Position numbers and translations under genes: made by a program | Source: PVC group bacterium | GTDB taxonomy: Bacteria; Auribacterota; Erginobacteria; Erginobacterales; Erginobacteraceae | Direction: 5' to 3' | NCBI GenBank assembly: GCA_043804695.1 | Contig: JAZDIV010000062.1 | Location: 1 to 23,883, forward strand | Length of the DNA: 23,883 nt | Shown: positions 4,022-15,287 of the stretch, in pieces | Position numbering within the stretch: position 1 is the stretch's first letter | Layout of the letters: each line of letters opens with the position of its first letter | The notes under the pieces: model-generated | Told to the model about the DNA's origin: nothing | What the model saw: only the letters and a program-made list of their open reading frames with translations | Databases searched by the model: none

Positions 4022-5562
4022 TTCTTTTTCCGGCAGGATGCTGCTTCTTCGGAATCAGACCGATCGGTCGGATCAGTCGGATCGGTCGTATTATAGTTCT
4101 TTCCCATCCCTAATTTTTTCAACACCTCGAAATACAGCGCGCCGGTCTCGGCGGCAGCTTTCTCTTCCCCCAGCGCTCTCTGCGCGCGGGCTTTCAGGAG
4201 GTAGGAGTACGCCATGGCCGGATTTAAAGCTATCGCCCGGTCGCAGAGAGAGACTGTTTCAGGGTATCGCCCGGAACGGAAGGCGTGGTCGGCCAGCATG
4301 TGGTAGATCAGGTCGCTCCCGCCCTGCTGACGGAGAGCCTCGTTCCAGAGCGTTCCGCCATCACGCCAGAACCGGCAGCGATACCCGGTGCCGACAGCCA
4401 GGAAGACGGCGATCATAAAGCCGGAAAGGATAATCACCGCCTTGAGGCGTTTCACTTCCCCTGCCCGGGACAACAGGCCGCTGAAACCTCCGCTTATCAG
4501 GTAACCGGCCGCGGCCAGGGGAAGATACATAAACCGGTTGGCGGCAACCTCGATCCCGGCGAAGGGGATGAGGCGGAGGACGGGCAGGAGAGTGACTATA
4601 AAAAAACCGGTGCCGAAGAGAATATCACGGTTCTTTCCCCGGTTAGCGGAGAGCCAGACGGCCAGTAAACAAACCAGGAGCACGGAACCCGCGACCGAAA
4701 CATCAAAGAAGGCTACTCTCGCCGGGAAAAGATAAACCGGGGAGAGCTGAACCGGCAGCAGGACCCGGATAACGTAAAATCCCAGGTTCCGGAAAAAGAG
4801 GAGCACGTTTTCACCGGACAGGCCGAGATGAGCGGCGCTTCCCGGATAGCGGGCGGTCTGCATCATCAGCGCGGGAACCCCAACGGCCAGAGCGAGGATG
4901 AAGAACGGAAGCAGGACGATCCAGTCTTTCTTCAATAATCGCCGGCGGAAGCAGGAGAGCCAAAGCAGTATTACCGGCGGCAGGGTCACCGCGGTGGTCT
5001 TGCAGAAAAGAGAAAGGATGAAAAAGATGATCGAGATGAGATAGAAGCGGGCCGATTGCCGGTTATGATAAAAGATGAAGGTTATTAAAGCGAGGAGGTA
5101 GAAAAACGCGAAGAGAAGATCTTTCCGGGCCGATATCCAGGCCACCGCCTGGACCTGGAGAGGATTGATCTCAAAGAACAGCGCCCCCGCCAGGGCCGCC
5201 GGGAGGTTTCTCCCGAGCAGGAACAGCAGAAAGAATACCAGCAGGGTGTTCGCCAGGTGCAGGAAGAGGCTATGAAGGTGATAAACGGCGGGCTGCAGGC
5301 CGAAAAGCCCGTATTCAACCGAGAAGAGCGCCGTCACCAAAGGGTGGTATTCACTGACCACCCGGGAGCGGAATATCTCCACCGTGTTCCGGAAAGACAC
5401 CTCCCGGACCAGGGGGTTCGCGAGAAGCTGGGCGGGGTCGTCCCAGTTGGTGAACCCGTTCCGGAGCACGGGGAAAAAAGCCGACGCTCCCGCCGCCAGC
5501 AGAACGAACACACCGGCCCAGATATAACATCTTTTATTCCGGGCTGTATTTTTCAAGCTCAT
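4018..5562 (-). CDS. TMTC-like GT-C glycosyltransferase with short TPR region
   Basis: FTNWDD, YHPL, YHLHSLFLH, AVAWISARKD, NRFMYLP, AIALNP; start moved to ATG at 5562 (MSLKN...) because the track's longer start runs through REPs and overlaps the RAYT. Confidence 0.8.
   Translation of the reverse strand: MSLKNTARNKRCYIWAGVFVLLAAGASAFFPVLRNGFTNWDDPAQLLANPLVREVSFRNTVEIFRSRVVSEYHPLVTALFSVEYGLFGLQPAVYHLHSLFLHLANTLLVFFLLFLLGRNLPAALAGALFFEINPLQVQAVAWISARKDLLFAFFYLLALITFIFYHNRQSARFYLISIIFFILSLFCKTTAVTLPPVILLWLSCFRRRLLKKDWIVLLPFFILALAVGVPALMMQTARYPGSAAHLGLSGENVLLFFRNLGFYVIRVLLPVQLSPVYLFPARVAFFDVSVAGSVLLVCLLAVWLSANRGKNRDILFGTGFFIVTLLPVLRLIPFAGIEVAANRFMYLPLAAAGYLISGGFSGLLSRAGEVKRLKAVIILSGFMIAVFLAVGTGYRCRFWRDGGTLWNEALRQQGGSDLIYHMLADHAFRSGRYPETVSLCDRAIALNPAMAYSYLLKARAQRALGEEKAAAETGALYFEVLKKLGMGKNYNTTDPTDPTDRSDSEEAASCRKKK
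4062..4088. repeat. Three tandem 9-mers GATC(G/A)GTCG in the gene's 3' end
   Basis: gatcggtcg gatcagtcg gatcggtcg; read as TDPTDPTD in the C-terminal tail. Confidence 0.75.
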
Positions 5563-5566
5563 TGCT

Positions 5567-5669
5567 GTGGGAGGGTTTTTTAAGCCCGATCCCACGGCCC
5601 GGCCAGATCGGGGTTGAAAACCCCTCCCACAAGGCCGGGCCACTGTGGGAGGGCTTTTTAAGCCCGATC
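5567..5669. repeat. REP cluster (BIME-like) downstream of RAYT, 3 REPs
   Basis: 5567-5591(+) and 5645-5669(+) GTGGGAGGG(C/T)TTTTTAAGCCCGATC; 5606-5630(-) GTGGGAGGGGTTTTCAACCCCGATC. Confidence 0.9.
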
Positions 5670-6157
5670 TATTCGAGATTAAATTTGCATCTCCAGTAAG
5701 GATACTCAGATGGCTTTTCAACCAACCCTTTTCTAACCGGGTTATAATAGCAATATAAGATTATCTGACGCAGAGATTCTTCTTTTCTAATACAATGGTC
5801 ATAATAACCTTCCTGCCATAATGCGCCTTCCCGGTTCCATAATTTATTTATCTCTCTCGACGAATATCTTTTCCAAGAGTGCATTAATTGCTCAAGTGTA
5901 TTTATTCCTTTAAGTGCAGCTACAAGATGCACATGATCGGGCATTATCATCACGCAAAATAAATCCCATTTATCATTATCTTCCAGCCATTGAATTGAAT
6001 TAAATATAATTTCACAGCTGGCGCTGTCTTTAAATATGCTCTGTTGATCCCTGGTACGCGTTGTTAAAAAATACGCGTGGCCACTGCCAGACCATCGACC
6101 CTGGCGAAGCCAGCTTGAACCTTTCTCCGGATGGCGTTTTTGATTATTATTGTTCAT
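5669..6157 (-). CDS. rayT: REP-associated tyrosine transposase (RAYT, Y1 HUH family)
   Basis: 162 aa; YFLTTRT, HuH motif MPDHVH, WQEGYYDHCIR, YCYYNPVRKGLV; REP clusters on both sides; visibly AT-rich versus neighbours. Confidence 0.92.
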   Translation of the reverse strand: MNNNNQKRHPEKGSSWLRQGRWSGSGHAYFLTTRTRDQQSIFKDSASCEIIFNSIQWLEDNDKWDLFCVMIMPDHVHLVAALKGINTLEQLMHSWKRYSSREINKLWNREGALWQEGYYDHCIRKEESLRQIILYCYYNPVRKGLVEKPSEYPYWRCKFNLE

Positions 6158-6176
6158 TGATTAGATTCTCTTTCTA

Positions 6177-6344
6177 ATCGGGGTTGGAAACCCCTCCCAC
6201 AATCGCCCCTCGCTAATCGGGGTTTGGAAACCCCTCCCACAAGGCCGGACCACTGTGGGAGGGCTTTTTAAGCCCGATCCCAGGGCCCGGCCAGATCGGG
6301 GTTGGAAACCCCTCCCACAATCACCCAGTAAAAACCCCTCCCAC
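6177..6344. repeat. REP cluster upstream of RAYT, 4 REPs plus a partial
   Basis: 6177-6200(-), 6216-6240(-), 6255-6279(+), 6294-6318(-), partial 6331-6344; two variants with stems GGGGTT/AACCCC (A) and GGGCTT/AAGCCC (B). Confidence 0.9.
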
Positions 6345-6371
6345 GGATATGGCACTTAAAATTAAGGACGA

Positions 6372-8153
6372 TTACTTGGCGGCGGACAGGTTTTGCCGGG
6401 CGGATTCCAGGTTCTGGTCCAGTTCCAGCGCTTTACGCCAGCAGCGGCGGGCGTCCTCTCCCCTGCCCCGGTTGGCGTAGATTACTCCCAGGTGGTCGTA
6501 GCCGATCGCGAAATCGGGATTAAGATAAACGGCTTTCCGGGCGTACTCTTCCGCTTCCTTCCACTGCCCCTGAGAGGCGTGGAAGCCCGCCAGATGATCG
6601 TAGATGACATGATCGTAGGGGGTGAGTTCAAGCGCCCGGCGGAATGCATCCAGGGCCACGTCGTACTTCCGTTGGAAAACATATATCTTTCCCAGTTCAT
6701 AGGCGGCGGGAGCATAATCAGGGTTGGCCCCGGCCGCGAGCAGAAGGGTTTTCACCGATTCCTCCTCCATCCCCCGTTCCCAGAGGGCGAGCCCCAGGTT
6801 GGTGAGGATAACCGCCCGGTACTCATCCGGAGGTCGGCTTTCCAAGGCCTTCCTGAACTCCGCTTCGGCCACGGCTGGTTTGCGGCCGGACAGGTGAAGG
6901 CTGCCCAGGTTATTGAGGGCGGTAGCGCTGAGGGGTGATGTCCGGAGGACATCCTCCCAGAAAAGGCGGGGATCGCTCCAGAGGAAATTTTCCATCCGGA
7001 TCAGCACCCCCCAGCAGACAAAGAGCAGAACCAGGCAGATGACCGATATGATTCGGGCGGATGCGTTTTTAAACCATCCCCAGGTTTTGATGATGAGAAC
7101 AGCCGCAGCCAAACTGAAACCGGCCAGGGGCAGGTAGAGATACCGGTCGGCCGCCAGGCGGGGCTGGTTGATGGCATTGGCTACCGGGAAGAGGGCGAGG
7201 ATGAACCATCCCCAGCCAAGCAGCAGAAGCCGCGACCGCCGGACGCAGCTGAGGATGATCATCGCCCCGGCCAGGGCGAGGGGAAAAAGAAAATTCTCCG
7301 GAAGGGCGAAGACCCCGTGAGAGAGGGGATACACGTAATCAAGGCAGAGGTTGACGGGAAGAACGGCCACCCGGAGATAATGGAGATAGGTGGCGGCAAC
7401 GGCATTCACCGGGCCCAGCTCTTTTCCGGTTGAAATCATCATCCAGCCTTCCTTCTCCAGGAGGAAGAACCGGACAATCACCCAGGCCAGGCTGATGGCG
7501 ATAAACCCCAGATAGAATCCCCTCCGGCGAGTGACCCCGGGAAAGCGCTCGACCAGAAACTGCAGGGCCAGCCAGAGGGGCAGTACCAGGGCCGGTTCCT
7601 TGCTGGCCAGGGCCAGCAGGTAGAAGACAAGTGAAAGAACGGTCCAGGCCCAGGGCCGCCGGGGGGACCGGGCCGCCCGGGTGGCGGCGATCAGGCTGAG
7701 CATAAACCAGAAGAACATCAGCGGGTCGTCCAGGAACGATACACAAGTGATGGTCTCAACGTGCGCCGGGTGGAGTGCGAAGAGGGCCGATGCCAGGAGG
7801 GAAACGGCGGAGCCGGCGTTCAGCAAACGCAGGTAGCAGAACAGGAGGATGACATTAACCAGATGGAGAAGCAGCTTGAAGAGGTGGTAGCCCCAGGGGT
7901 TGAGCCGCCAGAATGCGTACTGGATAAAATAAAAGAGAACGGTGACCGGTCGGAACCGCTTGGGTGAAAGCTTGTAATATTCGGACGTGAAGAGGCGGGG
8001 GATATAGGCGGGGTTCTTGATCAGGGCGCTCTCAACGATCTGATTGGCGTCATCGTAAATAAAAGGGACTTGAAAGGAGTTGCCGTAGGCGGCGACAGTC
8101 GCCAGGCCGATCAGCCCCAGACAGATCCATTCTTTTTTAAGATACCGGATCAT
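6372..8153 (-). CDS. TMTC-like GT-C glycosyltransferase with TPR repeats
   Basis: 593 aa; FIYDD, FRP, YHLFKLLLH, ALHPAHVE, SKE, ADRYLYLP; about five TPRs at the C-terminus. Confidence 0.85.
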   Translation of the reverse strand: MIRYLKKEWICLGLIGLATVAAYGNSFQVPFIYDDANQIVESALIKNPAYIPRLFTSEYYKLSPKRFRPVTVLFYFIQYAFWRLNPWGYHLFKLLLHLVNVILLFCYLRLLNAGSAVSLLASALFALHPAHVETITCVSFLDDPLMFFWFMLSLIAATRAARSPRRPWAWTVLSLVFYLLALASKEPALVLPLWLALQFLVERFPGVTRRRGFYLGFIAISLAWVIVRFFLLEKEGWMMISTGKELGPVNAVAATYLHYLRVAVLPVNLCLDYVYPLSHGVFALPENFLFPLALAGAMIILSCVRRSRLLLLGWGWFILALFPVANAINQPRLAADRYLYLPLAGFSLAAAVLIIKTWGWFKNASARIISVICLVLLFVCWGVLIRMENFLWSDPRLFWEDVLRTSPLSATALNNLGSLHLSGRKPAVAEAEFRKALESRPPDEYRAVILTNLGLALWERGMEEESVKTLLLAAGANPDYAPAAYELGKIYVFQRKYDVALDAFRRALELTPYDHVIYDHLAGFHASQGQWKEAEEYARKAVYLNPDFAIGYDHLGVIYANRGRGEDARRCWRKALELDQNLESARQNLSAAK

Positions 8154-8311: not shown

Positions 8312-10063
8312 CTACTTCTTCACCGATTCCAACCCCCGCCGCGCCCGGCGGGAACCGGGGTTCAGTTCCAGGGCTTTTCTGAAGGCATCCCCGGCCTCCG
8401 TCCAACGGCCCTGTTTCATGGCCGTCAGCCCCTTCCACTCCTGGAGGAAGGCGGGGCGGTTGACCTCCCGGTCCCGCCGCATATCGGGCGTCTTGATATT
8501 GACCAGGATCGCCAGCGCCAGTAGAAGCAGGAGATCGCGGCCCAGGACCGCCCATCGCCTCTCCCGGGCCCGGCGGCAGAGCTGCCGGACGGCGGCGGCG
8601 GCAAAGATCAAGAGCACGGGAGCGACGGCCAGGCGAAACCGCGGGATGACGTAGATCAGGAGAGACGAGATCAGGTACGAGGCCAGGTAGAGGTAGAGGA
8701 TCGGACCCGCGGCCCGCGGCCGGGCGATGATGACCCCCAGCAGGGCGATGGGCATGAGAATCGCCGGGGCGATGAAAGGGAAGATCCGGGCGTGATTCGC
8801 CCTCTCCATCACTTCCGGGACATCGTGCGGCTCGTACCCGTTCGCCAGCGCCAAAAGCTTCTTCCCCAGAAGCCGCAGATAGCGCCCGGGGTGTTGACGG
8901 ATGAAAAGGAGCCCCTCCTGGAACCAGAAAGCCGAACCTTCCCCATGTTTCAGGTCCCGGCCGGTTCTCTCCCGGGCGATCTCCAGACTGAAGAGATGCT
9001 CCAGGTAACTGAGCTTCCCGTCCCCCGGGCGGGCGTAATAGGCGATGGTCCGCTCCTCCAGTTCGGGGGGAGGGCTGAAGTCAAATCCCATCGCGCGCGG
9101 GTTGTTGCCGCTGTAAAAGACCCAGCCCCCGCTGGCCGTCACCGGGATAAATTCGCCGCTGTTGGCGTAATTGAAAAGCGTTACAGGAAGGACAACCAGG
9201 GCAACCGGAATCAGGAGAAGGAAGATTCGTCGGATCCTGGTTCCCCATTTTCCGCCGATCGGTTGGCCTGCCACAACCCTGTGGGAGGGCTTTATAAGCC
9301 CGATTTCCCAGCCACTGTGGGAGGGGTTTCCAACCCCGATTCTCAGCCTGGCCGAATCGGGGTTAGAAACCCCTCCCACAATTCGCTTCGCCGAATCGGG
9401 GTTGGAAACCCCTCCCACAATTTGCCCGGCGGGATCGGGGTTGGAAACCCCTCCCACATTTCGCCGCCGCGAAACCCCCGGCATCAAAGATATAGGGGCC
9501 CCGGAATTCACTACCAAATATGGAATCACAAGGAGAAGGAAGATAACGGCATTGGGCCGCGAGATGATGCTTAAACCAATAAAGAGACCGGCGCCGGCAA
9601 TCCAGGATGCCTTTCCCCCGCTCCCGGCCGGGACGAGGCAGATGAGCGCCGCCAGGTTAAAGGTTACCACCCAGATCGCCGGGAGAAAGCTCGTTCCGTA
9701 GATGACAAACGGCCCATAGAAAACCGCGGCCAGGGCGGCGATATAACCGACCTGGCAATTGAAGCAGAGCCGCCCCAGCCGATAAATAAGCCAGCAGTTG
9801 AACGCCCCCAGGAACGCCTGCAGGATCTGCAGATCAAGAATATTACGGCCCGTCCATTGCCCTGCTGCCAGGAAAACGATGTAGAAAGGACTGGAATAAA
9901 ACACCTCAATCTGAGGAGTGATCACGCCCTGGAGTCTGAGCGCCAGTTCCCAGTACTTGAAAAAATATACCAATGGATCAAAAATATAAAAAAGCGCCGA
10001 CAGCTGTACAGCCAGCGCCAGGAGGAATATCAACAAGGGATATAAATTTTTATGCGCGTTCAT
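8312..10063 (-). CDS. GT39/ArnT-like membrane glycosyltransferase with C-terminal TPR and in-frame REP insertion
   Basis: 583 aa; FYSSPFY, SRPN, GGWVFYSGNNP, PRFRL, ALELNPG; contains VGGVSNPD x3 translated from REPs. Confidence 0.78.
   Translation of the reverse strand: MNAHKNLYPLLIFLLALAVQLSALFYIFDPLVYFFKYWELALRLQGVITPQIEVFYSSPFYIVFLAAGQWTGRNILDLQILQAFLGAFNCWLIYRLGRLCFNCQVGYIAALAAVFYGPFVIYGTSFLPAIWVVTFNLAALICLVPAGSGGKASWIAGAGLFIGLSIISRPNAVIFLLLVIPYLVVNSGAPISLMPGVSRRRNVGGVSNPDPAGQIVGGVSNPDSAKRIVGGVSNPDSARLRIGVGNPSHSGWEIGLIKPSHRVVAGQPIGGKWGTRIRRIFLLLIPVALVVLPVTLFNYANSGEFIPVTASGGWVFYSGNNPRAMGFDFSPPPELEERTIAYYARPGDGKLSYLEHLFSLEIARERTGRDLKHGEGSAFWFQEGLLFIRQHPGRYLRLLGKKLLALANGYEPHDVPEVMERANHARIFPFIAPAILMPIALLGVIIARPRAAGPILYLYLASYLISSLLIYVIPRFRLAVAPVLLIFAAAAVRQLCRRARERRWAVLGRDLLLLLALAILVNIKTPDMRRDREVNRPAFLQEWKGLTAMKQGRWTEAGDAFRKALELNPGSRRARRGLESVKK
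9281..9457. repeat. Five REPs inside a coding sequence
   Basis: 9281-9304(+,B), 9317-9340(+,A), 9356-9379, 9395-9418, 9434-9457(-,A); spacings 36, 39, 39, 39 bp. Confidence 0.92.
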
Positions 10064-10066
10064 ACA

Positions 10067-11644
10067 TTAAAATATCTCCTCCTCCCCGTTGAAATGGGGA
10101 GGAGGAGATATTTTACGGTAGATGAATTGCGGGCGCCAGGGATATCCGGTCACCGGGTAAAATACCGGGGCATCTCCGAAGATCGTTCCCGTCCTTGCGT
10201 AGCGGCTCTTCAGCAGCCCCGGGAACCAGTCCTCCCGATCGAGGATGATATAGTCATATCTGCCTTCCCGGATCGCCCTTTCAAACTCTTTCAGCCAGAG
10301 CCGGGCGGGGTCCCCTTCCCGGTCTTTCATGGCCAGCAATAGATCGAGGACCGCGGTCCAGTGGGCGGACGATTCCTTCCCGGCCAGTCGCGGCAGGTAT
10401 CCGTGAAAAGGGAGCAAAACATCTCCCTCCACGCTTTTTATATATGCGATCAGGATGTCACCGGCCTGCCGGTCGGTATCCCGGGGGATACGGGCGGCCG
10501 GAAGATAGCCAAGCATGATGAATTGAACCGCCAGGCAGAGGCCCACCGCCGGCCCGGCGATGACCGATCCCCTACCCTTCCCGGCGGATACTCTCCCCCA
10601 CGTCCACCCGCAAAGGAGCGCAAAGGCGAACGCCGCGGGAAGCAGTGTGTTGACATAGCTGTTTACGTTACCCCTTCCCACCAGGCTGACCAGGAATAGA
10701 CTCGCCCCCAGGAGATAATAGAGCATCCCCGGGACTCCCTCCCGGAGCGGCCGGCGGTCTTTCAGGAGAAGCAGCGGTGAGACCAGGCTGAGCCCGAACA
10801 TCACGGGGAACGTTCCGATGATATCCCCGTACAGAAAATCACGGACCTGGTCCATCCGGATGGCATGCCGGGAGGAGAGGAGGAAAACGTAATAGACATA
10901 CCAGCCTCCGTAACACGCATTCAGGAGAAGGGTACCGCCGCCCGCGAAGAGCGCCAGGGCTCCCAGGTAGAGGAGAAACCGTTTCCATCCGGCAGAGATA
11001 TAGTAGACCCCGATCGCCAGGGCCGGGGCCAGCGCCACCTGCTTGGTAAAAAAGGCGGCGGAGAGCAGCACCGCGGTTAGAATGGGCGCCCAGAGGCCGG
11101 AATCGCGTCGACCGGCAACAAAAGCTCCGAGCGCGATCCAGAAGATGAAAAGGCTGTCCACCCGGGCGATATCCATCCAGGAGCCGGTCGCCCGGTAGGC
11201 GGCCGCGAATAACCCGGCGGAAAGAACCCCCGCCGAAACCAGGTTTGTCTCCCGCTTAATAATAGCGTAGAGGAGAACCATGGTTCCGAAAGAAGCCAGA
11301 AGAGAGACCAGGCGGGGCGCTAAAAACCCCAGGCCGAAGATGCGCATCGCCGCGGCGCTCAGCAGAAAATAGAGCGGCGGGTAAATAAAGGGGACGTACT
11401 GGAGATCCGGCTCACGATAAAGGGGGCTGCCGTTCAACAGCTGCCCGCATTCATCGACAATCGCCCCTTCCATCCATTCCAGTTCATAGGGATAGGCAAT
11501 CCGGTGAAGAGCGGTCCAGAGGTAGGCGGCGATGGCCAGGGCGGAGAGAAGAATGAGGATGTGACTGAGGATGGAAAGGAGACGGGAAAAAAATTTGGGG
11601 CGAAGGCTGTATTGGTTATAGAATGGTTGTGGCTTGGTAGCCAT
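10067..11644 (-). CDS. ArnT/GT39-like GT-C glycosyltransferase
   Basis: 525 aa polytopic; YPYELEWMEG, YPPLY, ARVD, FFTKQ; first ~16 codons resemble the neighbouring transposase N-terminus. Confidence 0.78.
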   Translation of the reverse strand: MATKPQPFYNQYSLRPKFFSRLLSILSHILILLSALAIAAYLWTALHRIAYPYELEWMEGAIVDECGQLLNGSPLYREPDLQYVPFIYPPLYFLLSAAAMRIFGLGFLAPRLVSLLASFGTMVLLYAIIKRETNLVSAGVLSAGLFAAAYRATGSWMDIARVDSLFIFWIALGAFVAGRRDSGLWAPILTAVLLSAAFFTKQVALAPALAIGVYYISAGWKRFLLYLGALALFAGGGTLLLNACYGGWYVYYVFLLSSRHAIRMDQVRDFLYGDIIGTFPVMFGLSLVSPLLLLKDRRPLREGVPGMLYYLLGASLFLVSLVGRGNVNSYVNTLLPAAFAFALLCGWTWGRVSAGKGRGSVIAGPAVGLCLAVQFIMLGYLPAARIPRDTDRQAGDILIAYIKSVEGDVLLPFHGYLPRLAGKESSAHWTAVLDLLLAMKDREGDPARLWLKEFERAIREGRYDYIILDREDWFPGLLKSRYARTGTIFGDAPVFYPVTGYPWRPQFIYRKISPPPHFNGEEEIF

Positions 11645-11646
11645 TG

Positions 11647-11822
11647 AACTTTCTCCCCTGCCGCGTAAGGCGGCAGGGGCCGTTTGTTATTTTTAGTGCT
11701 TGGTGGTAGCTTTTAAACTTTCTCCCCTGCCGCGCAAGGCGGCAGGGGCCGTTTGTTATTTTTAGTGCTTGGTGGTAGCTTTTAAACTTTCTCCCCTGCC
11801 GCGCAAGGCGGCAGGGGCCGTT
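11647..11822. repeat. 69-bp-period tandem repeat with three 38-bp palindromic cores
   Basis: AACTTTCTCCCCTGCCGCGYAAGGCGGCAGGGGCCGTT at 11647, 11716, 11785 with identical 31-bp linkers; a near-identical fourth core at 12833-12870. Confidence 0.92.
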
Positions 11823-11827
11823 GTTTA

Positions 11828-12033
11828 GACCCCCGTGGACTTGTGCCACGGGTGAATCAGTTCAGCAGCTGCCAGCCCTGCTCCCGGCCAGACCCCTGCC
11901 GGCTTGTCCGGCAGGTGAATCAGTTCACATGCTAAAAGCCCGTCCCCCCTCATAAGACCTCCGTGGCCTTGGCCCCCCCCGAGACTGCGAAGCAGTTTTT
12001 CGGGGTGCCACGGGTGAATCAGTTCAGCAGCTA
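11828..12033. repeat. Second-family palindromic repeats in opposite orientation, left flank of Y1 transposase
   Basis: CCCGTGG..TTG.GCCACGGGTGAATCAGTTCAGCAGCT and CCCCTGCCGGCTTGTCCGGCAGGTGAATCAGTTC; 11893-12033 is directly repeated at 12938-13045. Confidence 0.85.
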
Positions 12034-12830
12034 CCTTCTGACAGCCCCCATTGTATATTCCCCGAACGTCCCAACGTAGTAATTATATTCCCAGATACGA
12101 CGTTGCCCCATTAAATAGGCCAGATTATTTTGAAATGCCAGCGCAATATCTTCCGGGGACTGCTCCACGTTGCCCCGGATCGCGATATGCAGATGATCCG
12201 GCATGGCGGAAAGAGTAGAGATTGTATACCCTTTCTTCTCCGCGGTCCGCCGACAGGCAGTGACTAAATCAGCACCTCTTCTGCCCCACCCCATCCGATA
12301 GCGTTCGGCAACAACCAGGACCAGGTGAAGGTTATACCAGTAACTGCCGCTTCCGGTCTGTACAGGTTGAGAAAGATCAACGGATGGATCGTTTATGGCC
12401 TCATTTTTCAGCTATTTTCGTAACGCATATCGGCCAATTTCTCCCGAACCAGTTGTTTCCCGATGTAAGCTTCGACAACCTCCCGGGTATTCCGTCCGAT
12501 ACTTCGAACCGCAAGTTTACGGCTGAACTGGACGGGTTTCCCGACCAGGCGAAAAGCGTGCTGGAGACGGCCCTTGACCCGGGTTGCCAGCAGGAGAGGT
12601 GAGATTTGCGGCGTGGCGCTGAATGTTAATAAGATCCGCCGATCATCCCAGAGATGCTCAAGGAGACGGAGACCGTCTTTTTCCCAGTGTCCGGTCAATT
12701 CCTCCAGGAAAGGATGCGATGGTTGCGGGGGGAAAGTGTCCCGGGAAGGCCATCCGGTCCAGCCGTAACGAAGGTGGTAGGCAGGATGGAGATTATGGGG
12801 GGTATAAAGTGGTTGCGGTTTTATAGCCAT
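12031..12830 (-). pseudogene. tnpA: Tandem two-domain IS200/IS605-like Y1 transposase with one frameshift near 12411
   Basis: Frame 1 (12830-12408) ends FSRKLAVRSIGRNTREVVEAYIGKQ...; second frame open 12411-12031 with YWYNLHLVLV, MPDHLH, WEYNYYVGTFG; adding one base gives ~266 aa. Confidence 0.8.
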
Positions 12831-12832
12831 TG

Positions 12833-13045
12833 AACTTTCTCCCCTGCCGCGTAAAGCGGCAGGGGCCGTTATGTTTGGTGCTATGTGTTAGCTGCTGAAC
12901 TTTCGCTCCCCGACGATAAACGTCGGGGGGGCGTAAACCCCTGCCGGCTTGTCCGGCAGGTGAATGAGTTCTTACGCTAAAGTCCCGTCCCCCCACCACA
13001 AGACCCCCGTGGCCTTGCGCCACGGGTGAATCAGTTCAGCAGCTA
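12833..13045. repeat. Right-flank palindromic repeat block of the Y1 transposase
   Basis: Same units, order and orientation as the block at 11647-12033. Confidence 0.85.
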
Positions 13046-13089
13046 TCAAGAGCCCCCCGGACACCTGCCGGCAAACCCCATCACTTTTA

Positions 13090-13144
13090 CCCGCCGAAGC
13101 TTCAGCGAAGGCGGGCCATTATTCCACCACTCCATCACTCCATT
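13090..13144. repeat. Short palindrome plus degenerate 8-mer array overlapping a stop codon
   Basis: CCCGCCGAAGCTTCAGCGAAGGCGGG at 13090-13115, then cattattc caccactc catcactc. Confidence 0.6.
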
Positions 13145-15287
13145 GTATTTCATACACCACCATCTTGGGGAAGGTGTTGGCGACCTCCCGGTAATGGACG
13201 CGGTAGATCTCCGGGCGCTGCATCATGCCGAACAAGGGCCGGAGCCCGAGCCGCGGGTCGCCGAGTATCCCGAGGTTCTCGAAGATCCAGCCGGGGGTGG
13301 TCTGGAGTTCGACCATCGCCAGGTAGGCGGCCCCCCGTTCTTTCAGGTAGTCGACCACCCGTCCTTCCCGGAGGTAGCCGGCGAAATCACGATCCACCAG
13401 CCCCCCCAGGTCGATAACCTCGGTCCGGGGGGAGAAATATTTCAAGGCCCCGATATCAAAGGCGGCCAGGCGGCTCTGTTCGGGGAGCTCCCGGTCGATC
13501 CGGCGGGCCACGGCGACATGGACATCGTTGATGTGCCGGACGGAAGATGAATACACTTTTCTCCACTTCAGGGTGGAACCGAGATCGAGGAGAATGATCG
13601 CGGCCAGAAGAACAGTCGGCAAAACTCCGGGCCGGGCTCTGATCCGGCCCCCGCCGGGACCGGCGGCCCGGACCAGCCAGCAGGCGGCCGGAAGGAAGAG
13701 CATAATCCAGAAGAGGAGAAAGTTGATCGCCTGGTAACGGCCGGCCTGGCTCGGGCTGGGGAGCATGACGATATACACCAGGTTGTGCCCGGCCGCCCAG
13801 AGCAAGAGGAGGAACAGACCCGAGATGCGTCTTCTTCCCTTCCGGGCATTCTGAAGGATAAGCCGGAGCGAGCAGAGCGCCAGCAGACCGGCCCCGCCCC
13901 AGAAGACAGCCAGCAAAGGCCCCTGCTGAAAAGCGGGCGGGAGGAGGCTGATGGTCAGTCCGTACCCCCAGAGTCTGAGATAGGCGAGCGGCCCCCTCCC
14001 CCCGGCCGGGACCGAGAGCCACTTCCTTCCGGAAAAGGTGGTCGGGAGAAGAGACCCGCTTACGCAAAGGTTCTTCAGCAGCTCGAGAATTAAAAAAAGA
14101 GCCGGGATGAGGAGAAGGGGAAGGATGGGGCGCAGAGCGCAGAGCGCAGAGCGCAGAGCGCCTGGCGCAGAGCGCAGAGCGCCTGGCGCAGAGCGCCCGG
14201 GGCCGGTTTTCTGACCGCTGTGGGAGGGCTTTTCAAGCCCGATTCCCCCGACATGCTGTCGGGGATCGGGGCCCCGACAGATACTGTCGGGGCAAGTTAA
14301 AAATTTACCCCGAAATATTTTCGGGGCCCCTCCCACATCCGGCCTTCCCGCCTCCCCGGATGCGTCCCGCCGGGACTCGATAATCGCGGCATAGACCAGG
14401 GCTATCCCCCAGAGGACGATGCCCTCAATCCGGGTAATCAGCAAAAAGCCGAGCGCCCCCCCCGCCCACCGGTATCGGCCCCGGCTCAAACAGAAAATGG
14501 CGAAGACTCCGATCGCCAGAAAGGCGGTTGTCTCCATCCCCGAGAGGCTGTACCAGATCAGCGGGCCGCAGAGGAGAACGAGGAGCGATATAAAAAAAGC
14601 CAGCAGGTGGGGGAGCATGGCGTAAGGCGCATAGGGCATAGAGCATGGCGCATAGGGCATAGAGCATAGAGCATAGCGCCCTAGCCCGATTCCCGGCTTC
14701 CCCCGGATCGAGGTTACAAACCTCTCCCACAATCGGCCGGCACCGAGGGAGGACAGCCCTGGCCCAATTCCCGGCCCCGCTGGATCGGGGTTGGAAACCC
14801 CTCCCACAATTACCCCTCGCTGATCGGGGTTGGAAACCCCTCCTACAATCGCCCCTCGCTGATCGGGGTAAAAAACCTCTCCCGCGGATAACAGAAATCG
14901 GTAGACAAGGAGCCCCGTCATTGCCGCGAGGGAGAACTGGGCGGCGCACCCTAAAAAGATGCTCCAGCCGACAACGGAAAAACCAAAGGACCGGCCCAGG
15001 CTGAGGAGAAGGAACCAGAGGGTGCTGGTAAAGCCGATCGAGGGCCGGCCGGGGTTAAAAGCGGTCTCCCCGCCGGAGACAAAATTCCGGGCAAAAACGG
15101 CATAGATCCAGCTGTCGTCGAGGGGGAAACCGGGGGCATTGCCGGCCAGAAACGGGAAGGCACCGGGGAGGAGCGGCGCGATAAAGGACCAGATAATCGC
15201 AAATTCAACCAGGAGGAGCAAAAAGATCCGGAATCGCTTTTTTCCCGCAGTCCCCACTTCTCTGACTTGCGCAAGCAGTCCTCTCAC
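13119..15287 (-). CDS. GT-C-like membrane glycosyltransferase (AftB-like motifs) with two in-frame repeat-derived insertions
   Basis: 722 aa; LDDSWIYAVFARN, FNPG, GFTSTLW, SGMET, RIEG, DIGALKYFS, DLGGLVD; GTGA overlap with upstream gene. Confidence 0.72.
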   Translation of the reverse strand: MRGLLAQVREVGTAGKKRFRIFLLLLVEFAIIWSFIAPLLPGAFPFLAGNAPGFPLDDSWIYAVFARNFVSGGETAFNPGRPSIGFTSTLWFLLLSLGRSFGFSVVGWSIFLGCAAQFSLAAMTGLLVYRFLLSAGEVFYPDQRGAIVGGVSNPDQRGVIVGGVSNPDPAGPGIGPGLSSLGAGRLWERFVTSIRGKPGIGLGRYALCSMPYAPCSMPYAPYAMLPHLLAFFISLLVLLCGPLIWYSLSGMETTAFLAIGVFAIFCLSRGRYRWAGGALGFLLITRIEGIVLWGIALVYAAIIESRRDASGEAGRPDVGGAPKIFRGKFLTCPDSICRGPDPRQHVGGIGLEKPSHSGQKTGPGRSAPGALRSAPGALRSALCALRPILPLLLIPALFLILELLKNLCVSGSLLPTTFSGRKWLSVPAGGRGPLAYLRLWGYGLTISLLPPAFQQGPLLAVFWGGAGLLALCSLRLILQNARKGRRRISGLFLLLLWAAGHNLVYIVMLPSPSQAGRYQAINFLLFWIMLFLPAACWLVRAAGPGGGRIRARPGVLPTVLLAAIILLDLGSTLKWRKVYSSSVRHINDVHVAVARRIDRELPEQSRLAAFDIGALKYFSPRTEVIDLGGLVDRDFAGYLREGRVVDYLKERGAAYLAMVELQTTPGWIFENLGILGDPRLGLRPLFGMMQRPEIYRVHYREVANTFPKMVVYEIQWSDGVVE
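14130..14192. repeat. Heptamer array, 9 units GCGCAGA/GCGCCTG
   Basis: 9 x 7 = 63 bp read directly, plus a degenerate tenth unit. Confidence 0.9.
14220..14336. repeat. Intragenic REP-B, micro-hairpin and expanded REP
   Basis: 14220-14243 GTGGGAGGGCTTTTCAAGCCCGAT; hairpin 14246-14264; branched REP 14265-14336. Confidence 0.85.
14613..14675. repeat. Heptamer array, 9 units G(A/C/G)GCAT(A/G)
   Basis: gagcatg gcgtaag gcgcata gggcata gagcatg gcgcata gggcata gagcata gagcata; encodes YALCSMPYAPCSMPYAP. Confidence 0.85.
14707..14885 (-). repeat. Intragenic cluster of four REP-A copies
   Basis: 14707-14730 variant, 14784-14807, 14823-14846 (GTAG), 14862-14885 degenerate; last three at 39-bp period. 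Confidence 0.88.

Follow-up and report, generated by a model that had tools for sequence, protein, structure and literature searches.

How does a membrane glycosyltransferase gene come to begin in the same way as a nearby transposase gene? This question is raised by a contig of 23,883 nucleotides (nt) from an uncultured bacterium of the PVC group (JAZDIV010000062.1, or C62, from an assembly of 2.97 Mb in 155 contigs with 57.8% G+C and 88% completeness), which was analysed over its whole length and is called the window below. Every large gene of this contig lies on the minus strand. Along that strand, a pilus/secretion-type gene set is followed by an open reading frame (ORF) of 722 amino acids (aa) (13119-15287), by a spacer of 1.47 kb that holds dense hairpin repeats and a gene for a Y1 transposase, and then by a run of GT-C-like membrane proteins whose first gene is a glycosyltransferase (GT) ORF of 525 aa. 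A prediction made earlier from the letters of the DNA held that this GT gene had been fused to the 5' end of a transposase copy, with a mobile repeat supplying its translation start. Our analysis makes two terms of this original prediction more precise, in that the transposase is a RAYT (a transposase associated with repetitive extragenic palindromic, or REP, sequences) and the repeat belongs to its REP family. We judge, with a probability of roughly 0.7, that the ribosome-binding site, the start codon and the first 16 codons of the GT gene were taken from the 5' end of the RAYT gene.

The 5' region common to the GT and RAYT genes

The GT ORF starts MATKPQPFYNQYSLRP and the transposase ORF starts MAIKPQPLYTPHNLHP. 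Ahead of both lies the hairpin GGCCCCTGCCGC-loop-GCGGCAGGGG, then AGAAAGTTCA, then ATGGCTA, which amounts to a common layout of a 10-bp GC hairpin, GGAG, 8 nt and ATGGCTA. The stretch that leads from the first hairpin base to the ATG agrees between the two copies at 36 of its 37 nt (alignment A1), and the original prediction of one and the same hairpin, with GGAG at Shine-Dalgarno (SD) distance, before both genes is thereby borne out. The likeness continues into the coding sequences. Set in register, the first 16 codons agree at 31 of 48 nt positions and encode 9 identical residues out of 16, and four codons differ only synonymously (AAG/AAA, CCA/CCG, CTT/CTC and CCC/CCT), as had been noted for several positions. 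The GT-proximal copy of the repeat is the last of a tandem array of 69-bp units, each composed of hairpin, tail and A-rich linker. This proximal unit reads TTCAATG, and both distal units read TTTAAAA (ATG versus AAA, TTC versus TTT), exactly the AAA at the ATG position that the prediction had reported for the two upstream copies.

Downstream of the GCTA, 24 of 41 nt (59%) are identical in register. By comparison, the 112 other REP copies placed against RAYT in the same register over 41 nt give a mean of 11.8 matches (sd 3.2) and a maximum of 20, and among 200,000 random genomic 41-mers the probability of reaching 24 matches is 5e-6. Composition-preserving shuffles give P = 2.9e-4 for the DNA and P = 1.3e-4 for the protein (7 of 14 residues identical). 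The 17 mismatches comprise 13 transitions and 4 transversions, and fall 2, 5 and 10 times at the first, second and third codon positions. Given the 13 transitions and the 10 changes at third positions, the two stretches appear to have diverged from a common sequence rather than to be unrelated DNA.

An independent view of the same segment comes from the RAYT family. A hidden Markov model (HMM) of the RAYT N-terminus was scored on the N-terminal 25-mers of 4,799 genomic N-termini, 4,798 of them non-RAYT. The GT N-terminus scores 9.7 bits and ranks first among the 4,798, with positions 1-14 of the model aligned to GT residues 3-16. It also ranks first when set beside the 119 GT homologues listed, where the next score is 3.9 bits.

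The GT protein has a weak match to PF13231 (PMT_2; E = 4e-5, 24.3 bits, below the gathering cut-off of 26.1) and none in NCBIfam. Its homologues number 430 at E <= 1e-20, and PF13231 or a source label of GT39 is common among them. The GT frame is open over all 525 codons, and the alignment with orthologues, at up to 68% identity, covers the protein from one end to the other. A start of the MATKPQP type is found in none of the 10 closest homologues (P0002-P0011, 49-68% identity), of which P0007 is a truncated gene call and uninformative on this point; the N-terminal segment, which corresponds to the RAYT family consensus, is missing from these orthologues. In the same-genus genome G001, the orthologue starts MMKTQHFITPLL (also given as MMKTQHFITPLLQHSR) and is adjoined by the same 722-aa gene, and the 370-bp spacer between the two holds neither a REP nor a RAYT. 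From K17 onwards (KFFSRLLSILS) the GT protein lines up with its orthologues, for example with KFFKYSSSILS in P0011, which places the junction at about codon 16/17. The N-terminal tail measures 16 residues in the GT protein and 14-16 in the orthologues, and the first hydrophobic or transmembrane helix spans residues about 22-40.

Two further observations concern the orthologous loci. The intergenic site of the sister genome G001 has gathered unrelated repeats of its own, since the spacer before its GT orthologue (L002, 1120-1260) holds another short repeat, CGCACAGACAGGAATGTCCGTGTCACC, three times over. The orthologue of G003 was set aside as evidence on the N-terminus: near the contig end its 5' end enters unrelated, artefact-like sequence, running into FFFSSRRRHTRYISVTGVQTCALPIF (L003, G003:C10, about 2450-2534). 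This we take to resemble a peptide that often arises from sequencing or assembly artefacts, and the end of G003:C10 is probably chimeric.

Where would translation of the GT gene begin? The first in-frame ATG, GTG or TTG after codon 1 comes at codon 58, beyond the first helix, and 15 codons upstream of the ATG the frame is closed by a TAA. This leaves the ATG at 11644 as the only canonical start that retains the first membrane helix, and the possibility that a downstream codon serves instead, considered along with the prediction, finds no candidate. Ribosomes would be expected to initiate at this ATG, giving the predicted N-terminal peptide (M)ATKPQPFYNQYSLR. The GGAG is 8 nt before it, the commonest GGAG-to-ATG spacing in this genome, in which SD-like motifs precede 684 of 2,374 starts (28.8%) versus 276 of 2,374 (11.6%) in a control window. 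No comparable purine-rich motif was found upstream of the ATG of the G001 orthologue. Taken together, the in-register homology, the RAYT-family motif and its absence from orthologues uphold, at the level of sequence, the view that the GT gene was fused to the 5' end of a transposase copy.

The RAYT gene and its REP family

The C-terminal half of the transposase matches Y1_Tnp (PF01797, E = 7e-10 on 12031-12411, minus strand), and its N-terminal half has no Pfam match. Its sequence includes an HLH motif (within PDHLHIAIRG) and, at the C-terminus, a conserved EYT, and it matches the ISDra2 TnpA chains weakly (E = 1e-5). At E <= 1e-10 there are 679 homologues, typically of 262-275 aa, many of which bear the JGI label 'REP element-mobilizing transposase RayT'. 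Searches by tblastn with both halves found only the copy of the window in the assembly. The gene is split near 12408-12414 by a single frame change; its reading frames cover residues 1-140 and 142-267 of the intact homologue P0129, and intact homologues (263-290 aa) read through this point. The frame change could reflect a true pseudogene or a consensus error.

The N-terminus is among the best-conserved parts of the family. In an alignment in which 114 of 121 sequences (the query and the 120 homologues listed) could be anchored, the consensus is M-K-P-Q-P-L-Y-x-x-H-N-L-R/H-P-A-Y-Q-L-R-Y-G-W, with Y in 114 of 114, P-x-P before the Y in 87 and 101 of 114 at its two prolines, and L or I in 103 of 114; N-L and then P-A-Y-Q-L-R-Y-G-W follow the Y. 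Among 60 relatives searched, 6 have a RAYT homologue. In G007 and G008 the RAYT ATG directly follows a hairpin and GAAAGTTCA, and the G007 protein starts MATNPQ. The RAYT of G023, from another family of the same phylum, begins MPQPLYIAHNLHP and retains the leader MPQPLYIAHNLHPAY, in a genome with 2 copies of the REP tail versus 6 in the control. The conservation of this leader peptide across the RAYT family, including in G023, which is essentially without the REP tail, indicates that it belongs to the transposase. As judged from these comparisons, the direction of the exchange can be regarded as settled, with RAYT as the donor and GT as the recipient of the common N-terminus. At T3 and R15 the GT protein agrees with the RAYT homologues P0124 (T3, R15) and P0125 (R15) and not with the neighbouring RAYT copy.

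The REP tail motif AGTT[CT]ANNNGCTA occurs in 114 copies genome-wide, where about 3 are expected from base frequencies, and nearly always lies 6-8 nt after a 9-10-bp GC-rich hairpin. The hairpins are of three or four stem types, are found in both orientations on many contigs and commonly form doublets. The conserved element, 6-8 nt 3' of the stem, is AGTTCANNNGCTA, the reverse complement of which contains TAGC; directly at the base of the stem, this REP family has no conserved GTAG (or CGTC), and Rfam gave no match at E <= 1 over 11300-13300. Written as AGTTCA-NNN-GCTA, the tail has ATG as its variable triplet in 6 of the 114 copies and a start codon of any kind (ATG, GTG or TTG) in 8, and an ORF of at least 100 codons opens only from those of RAYT and GT.

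Both ends of the RAYT ORF are defined by these repeats: the left REP tail provides the ATG as its NNN triplet, and the TAG falls in the GCTA, here reverse-complemented, of the inverted REP on the right (the TAGC at 12031-12035). In G007, G008 and G023, the RAYT stop is instead the TGA of an inverted TGAACT. Start and stop codons within REP tails are a feature of 2-3 of the 6 related genomes with a RAYT homologue. Farther out, the doublet upstream of RAYT (13021-12937) is 87% identical over 85 nt to one on its right flank (11974-11892). A small hairpin element sits within the loop of the last of the three right-flank REPs; this element (about 11972-12005, plus strand) is of the CCCCCGAGACTGCGAAGCAGTTTTTCGGGG type, and similar ones precede REP tails on C118, C129, C149 and C24.

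Units that consist of two left-end REPs (REP-A and REP-B) and the inverted doublet, with no RAYT gene between them, are present on at least C31, C50, C101, C103, C117, C154 and C35 (for example C31:26176-26403, C50:2126-2412, C103:5115-5347 and C154:5391-5624). Three such copies join ATGGCT to the last 25-35 nt of RAYT (C35:7591, C101:2894 and C117:10971). The presence of left and right flanks without RAYT at other loci indicates that the element was copied whole and that internal deletions are common, and these copies look like internal deletions, in the style of miniature inverted-repeat transposable elements, of an element that was once multi-copy.

Coordinates of the features discussed, in window positions
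Feature	Position	Strand	Basis
GT-C type membrane glycosyltransferase ORF, 525 aa	10067..11644	-	ORF translation; weak PMT_2 match; homologues
GT codons 1-16, homologous to RAYT gene codons 1-16	11597..11644	-	in-register likeness; RAYT N-terminal HMM
REP-B copy beside GT: 10-bp hairpin (11655-11679), GGAG (11653-11656), 8-nt spacer (11645-11652)	11645..11679	-	
69-bp tandem array of REP-B units, 2.7 copies	11635..11822	-	TRF score 348, 96% matches; family D1
Three oppositely oriented REP units (about 11829-11873, 11892-11936, 11961-12035), right RAYT flank	11829..12035	+	families D2, D4, D5
RAYT / Y1 (HUH) transposase gene, single copy, one frameshift near 12408-12414	12031..12830	-	PF01797
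Left RAYT flank: REP-A (about 12889-12930), linker, REP-B (hairpin 12841-12865) with GGAG and ATG context	12831..12930	-	
Inverted REP doublet upstream of RAYT, paralogous to 11892-12035	12937..13047	+	blastn; family D2

Other features of the window deserve mention in their own right. Between 57 and 11644 on the minus strand, following the pilus/secretin genes, lie the genes of five or six sizeable membrane proteins that match PMT_2 and/or tetratricopeptide repeats (TPR) weakly, and this hints at a group of paralogous GT-C enzymes that might glycosylate pilin or the surface. A second Y1_Tnp gene (5669-6157, minus strand, 162 aa, PF01797 with E = 4e-11) is flanked on both sides (5560-5700 and 6140-6380) by a different REP family, of the TTGTGGGAGGGGTTTCCAACCCCGAT type. 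Repeats of this type, with about 19-20 copies in the genome and 7 on this contig, also occur in frame as tandem units of 36-39 nt within the ORFs 8312-10063 and 13119-15287 (at 9279-9470 and 14778-14883), where they encode peptide repeats of the IVGGVSNPD type.

A proposed history and its competitors

On the reading that we favour, the window holds a REPtron, that is, a single-copy RAYT bracketed by its own REP hairpins, inserted between the 722-aa gene and GT. The left REP bears the translation signals in this RAYT family, with ATG filling the variable triplet of the tail. A second copy of the left end, comprising the REP-B hairpin, GGAG, ATG and 16 RAYT codons, was then probably joined in frame to GT at about codon 17, exchanging the original short cytoplasmic tail for a RAYT-derived one of nearly equal length. 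After the repeated doublet (11892-12035), the spacer continues with one more inverted REP, three REP-B units and the RAYT-like codons, a mosaic that can be read as two tandem element copies, of which the second has kept its left end alone and is joined to GT. The junction probably arose by deletion within such a tandem or second copy; a deletion from RAYT codon 17 into the original 5' end of GT is plausible in view of how common internal deletions of the element are. Most likely, a mobile element has provided both the start site at which translation of GT would now begin and the N-terminal peptide of its product.

Several points weigh against this reading. The homologous stretch is short (48 nt, with the 59% identity seen after the GCTA), both 5' sequences are A/C-rich, and a gapped, free-end DNA alignment is weaker, at P = 0.024. 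When the HMM was run unconstrained against all 63,815 ORFs, GT did not appear among 116 matches at E <= 100, and the significance of the likeness accordingly depends on its fixed position after the common REP. The runner-up among genomic N-termini, C31:37827, scores 9.1 bits; it has no REP nearby and is a chance match. The contrast between 36 of 37 identical nt in the REP and 59% in the coding part needs concerted evolution of the REPs or their later replacement, and it implies that the fusion is not recent and that the REPs have since been homogenised or replaced. Finally, the SD of the GT gene is partly base-paired in the predicted structure, and the site could be poorly used; and the assembly is fragmented into 155 contigs, with contiguity at the GT locus taken from the assembled sequence as it stands.

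Part of the GT motif could also be ancestral. K4, Q6 and F8 of the GT protein match the G001 orthologue (MMKTQHF) without a gap, and K and Q match P0009 (MKSQHS); three chance matches in 15 positions have an estimated probability of about 0.06. An alternative builds on this: a REP unit alone (GGAG, ATG and GCTACCA) would have been inserted, GT codons 4-16 would be ancestral, and the RAYT likeness would be due to chance or to a junction guided by K-x-Q microhomology. The almost constant length of the N-terminal tail is in keeping with this, and REP tails elsewhere often continue GCTA(A)CCACCA, such that at least ATGGCTACCA can be pure REP. What makes this account rather unlikely in our judgement is that GT codons 4-16 share 7 of 13 residues with RAYT, as against 3 with G001 and 2 with P0009; that GT has every one of the conserved RAYT residues P, P, Y, L and P, which the orthologues lack; that the orthologue N-termini score below 0.6 bits on the RAYT HMM; and that the excess of transitions (13 of 17) indicates divergence from a common sequence. 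The same low HMM scores led us to treat the MK[TS]QH N-terminus of the orthologues as a coincidence and not as RAYT-derived. As a separate observation, ancestral-type N-termini such as MMKTQHF (P0002) and MKSQHS (P0009) have K-x-Q, and in P0002 the F, in common with GT and the RAYT leader; this overlap is probably due to chance, and such microhomology could have guided the junction.

It is very improbable, in our estimation, that the 48 nt in common are a longer REP unit, or trailer, read by both genes, rather than copied transposase coding sequence. REP-B units do adjoin a conserved A-rich linker of about 25 nt, and the tandem units continue GCTACCACCAAGCAC, loosely resembling GCTACCAAGCCAC of GT. 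However, none of the 112 other REP copies has such a trailer (at best 20 of 41 matches versus RAYT and 18 of 41 versus GT), the peptide is kept in RAYTs of genomes without the REP tail (G023), and the 5' coding sequences of GT and RAYT are unlike the linkers (P = 0.19, 0.44, 0.93 and 0.50), which led to the rejection of linker and 5' codons as the same sequence.

A different doubt is whether the GT start is used at all, the gene being silent or decaying after REP/RAYT disruption of its 5' end, or whether misassembly at a repeat has produced the junction. The frameshift in RAYT itself and the metagenome-type fragmentation of the assembly speak for this, as do the signals around the start. No sigma-70-like promoter was found in 11400-13300, where 0.9 would be expected. 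Of the GGAG, the first two G are part of the 10-bp stem, which takes in four of six bases when the motif is read as GGGGAG; the 76-nt region folds at -31.5 kcal/mol (z = -5.6), a very stable hairpin, with the following AGAA also paired in the predicted minimum-energy fold. On the other side, the GT frame remains open and alignable over its whole length. Read-through transcription into GT is possible, given that its neighbours are co-stranded and that the REP hairpins lack a U-tract on the gene strand, being terminator-like only on the plus strand, antisense to the genes. A chimera from repeat collapse could not have given rise to the RAYT-like codons, which differ from RAYT at 17 of 48 positions and run unbroken into unique GT sequence. 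We consider an unused or artefactual start quite improbable.

The origin of the GT start from the RAYT 5' end thus remains our preferred reading, and it would carry a consequence for expression. With part of the SD in the REP stem, initiation on GT is probably damped, and by analogy with tnpA of IS200 the gene probably inherited a gated, low-output start. A bolder version holds that REP-A/REP-B, RAYT and the inverted doublet form an IS-like element that is, or recently was, mobile, and not a RAYT fixed by domestication, with its left end, made up of a hairpin-gated SD, the ATG and the conserved leader peptide, as a portable translation-initiation cassette; GT would be under IS200-style gating, and the copy number of the 69-bp array, or the action of RAYT on the GT-proximal REP, would tune or switch its output. 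This proposal is, in our view, also unlikely. Compared separately with IS200/IS605 insertion sequences, the element differs in having one full copy only, beside internally deleted ones, and in its score on the IS200-family profile NF033573, measured on the intact homologue P0121, of 52.8 bits versus a cut-off of 55. Phase switching by recombination between tandem units (ATG versus AAA) was considered and is judged unlikely by reasoning, since only 7 nt are common downstream of the ATG and the loss of a unit keeps the ATG-bearing copy beside the gene.

Relation to described systems and biological meaning

Insertion sequences (IS) mediate gene fusions and carry expression signals, including outward and hybrid promoters. 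The GT locus is similar in that a mobile element would supply signals to an adjacent host gene, and it differs in that a translation initiation region and N-terminal codons, rather than a promoter, would be supplied.

REPtrons, in which RAYT (TnpA-REP) genes are flanked by their cognate REPs, are well described (Corneloup et al. 2021, PMC8266576; Bertels & Rainey 2011, PMC3116915). The locus resembles them in its single-copy Y1/HUH transposase, its inverted GC-rich hairpins on both sides and its about 100 dispersed copies, often doublets. Unlike those described there, the RAYT of the window is about 265 aa long, with a conserved extra N-terminal half that lacks a Pfam match; its REP has the tail AGTTCA-NNN-GCTA 6-8 nt 3' of the hairpin and not GTAG directly 5'; start and stop codons lie inside REP tails, and RAYT-less copies of the whole unit exist elsewhere; and a left-end fragment would form the 5' end of a host gene.

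REPs within ORFs, including at N-termini, have been catalogued, with many N-terminal cases attributed to mis-called starts, and N-terminal insertions of the Rickettsia palindromic element RPE-1 are expressed (Di Nocera et al., PMC3733652). What the GT locus shares with those cases is that the 5' end of a host ORF is overlapped by a palindromic repeat and that the segment is missing from homologues elsewhere. The differences from these accounts are that here the hairpin would stay in the 5' untranslated region and the translated part would be mostly transposase gene (16 codons), and that no downstream start could rescue a shorter protein. REP-derived N-termini are thus already described, and it is the RAYT-gene-derived segment with an untranslated hairpin that differs. 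In IS200, a stem-loop at the left end sequesters the SD and strongly represses translation of tnpA (PMC4513863). The overlap of a left-end hairpin with the transposase SD is a likeness, here with the GGGG of GGGGAG predicted to be paired in the 10-bp stem; in contrast to the arrangement reported for IS200, the predicted hairpin and SD would have been inherited by a gene that is not a transposase. No case of a RAYT 5' end fused to a host gene was met in the literature surveyed, a survey in which no search was aimed at such fusions and supplementary tables were left aside, and this is weak evidence that the fusion is new.

The GT/RAYT fusion is a single event in one uncultured genome, and for the organism it probably means little beyond an exchanged cytoplasmic tail and perhaps less translation. 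If the element does act as a mobile cassette, the REP-B array or RAYT would tune the production of a surface-glycan enzyme. For the annotation of genomes, a REP at the 5' end of a GT ORF such as this cannot be dismissed as a mis-called start. For the family, a RAYT with start and stop codons in REP tails, along with copies that lack RAYT, bears on the origin of REP doublets from IS200-like ancestors. The locus would furthermore provide a clean, datable example in which a REP/RAYT system contributes more than non-coding structure, namely the translation start and the N-terminal peptide of a host gene.

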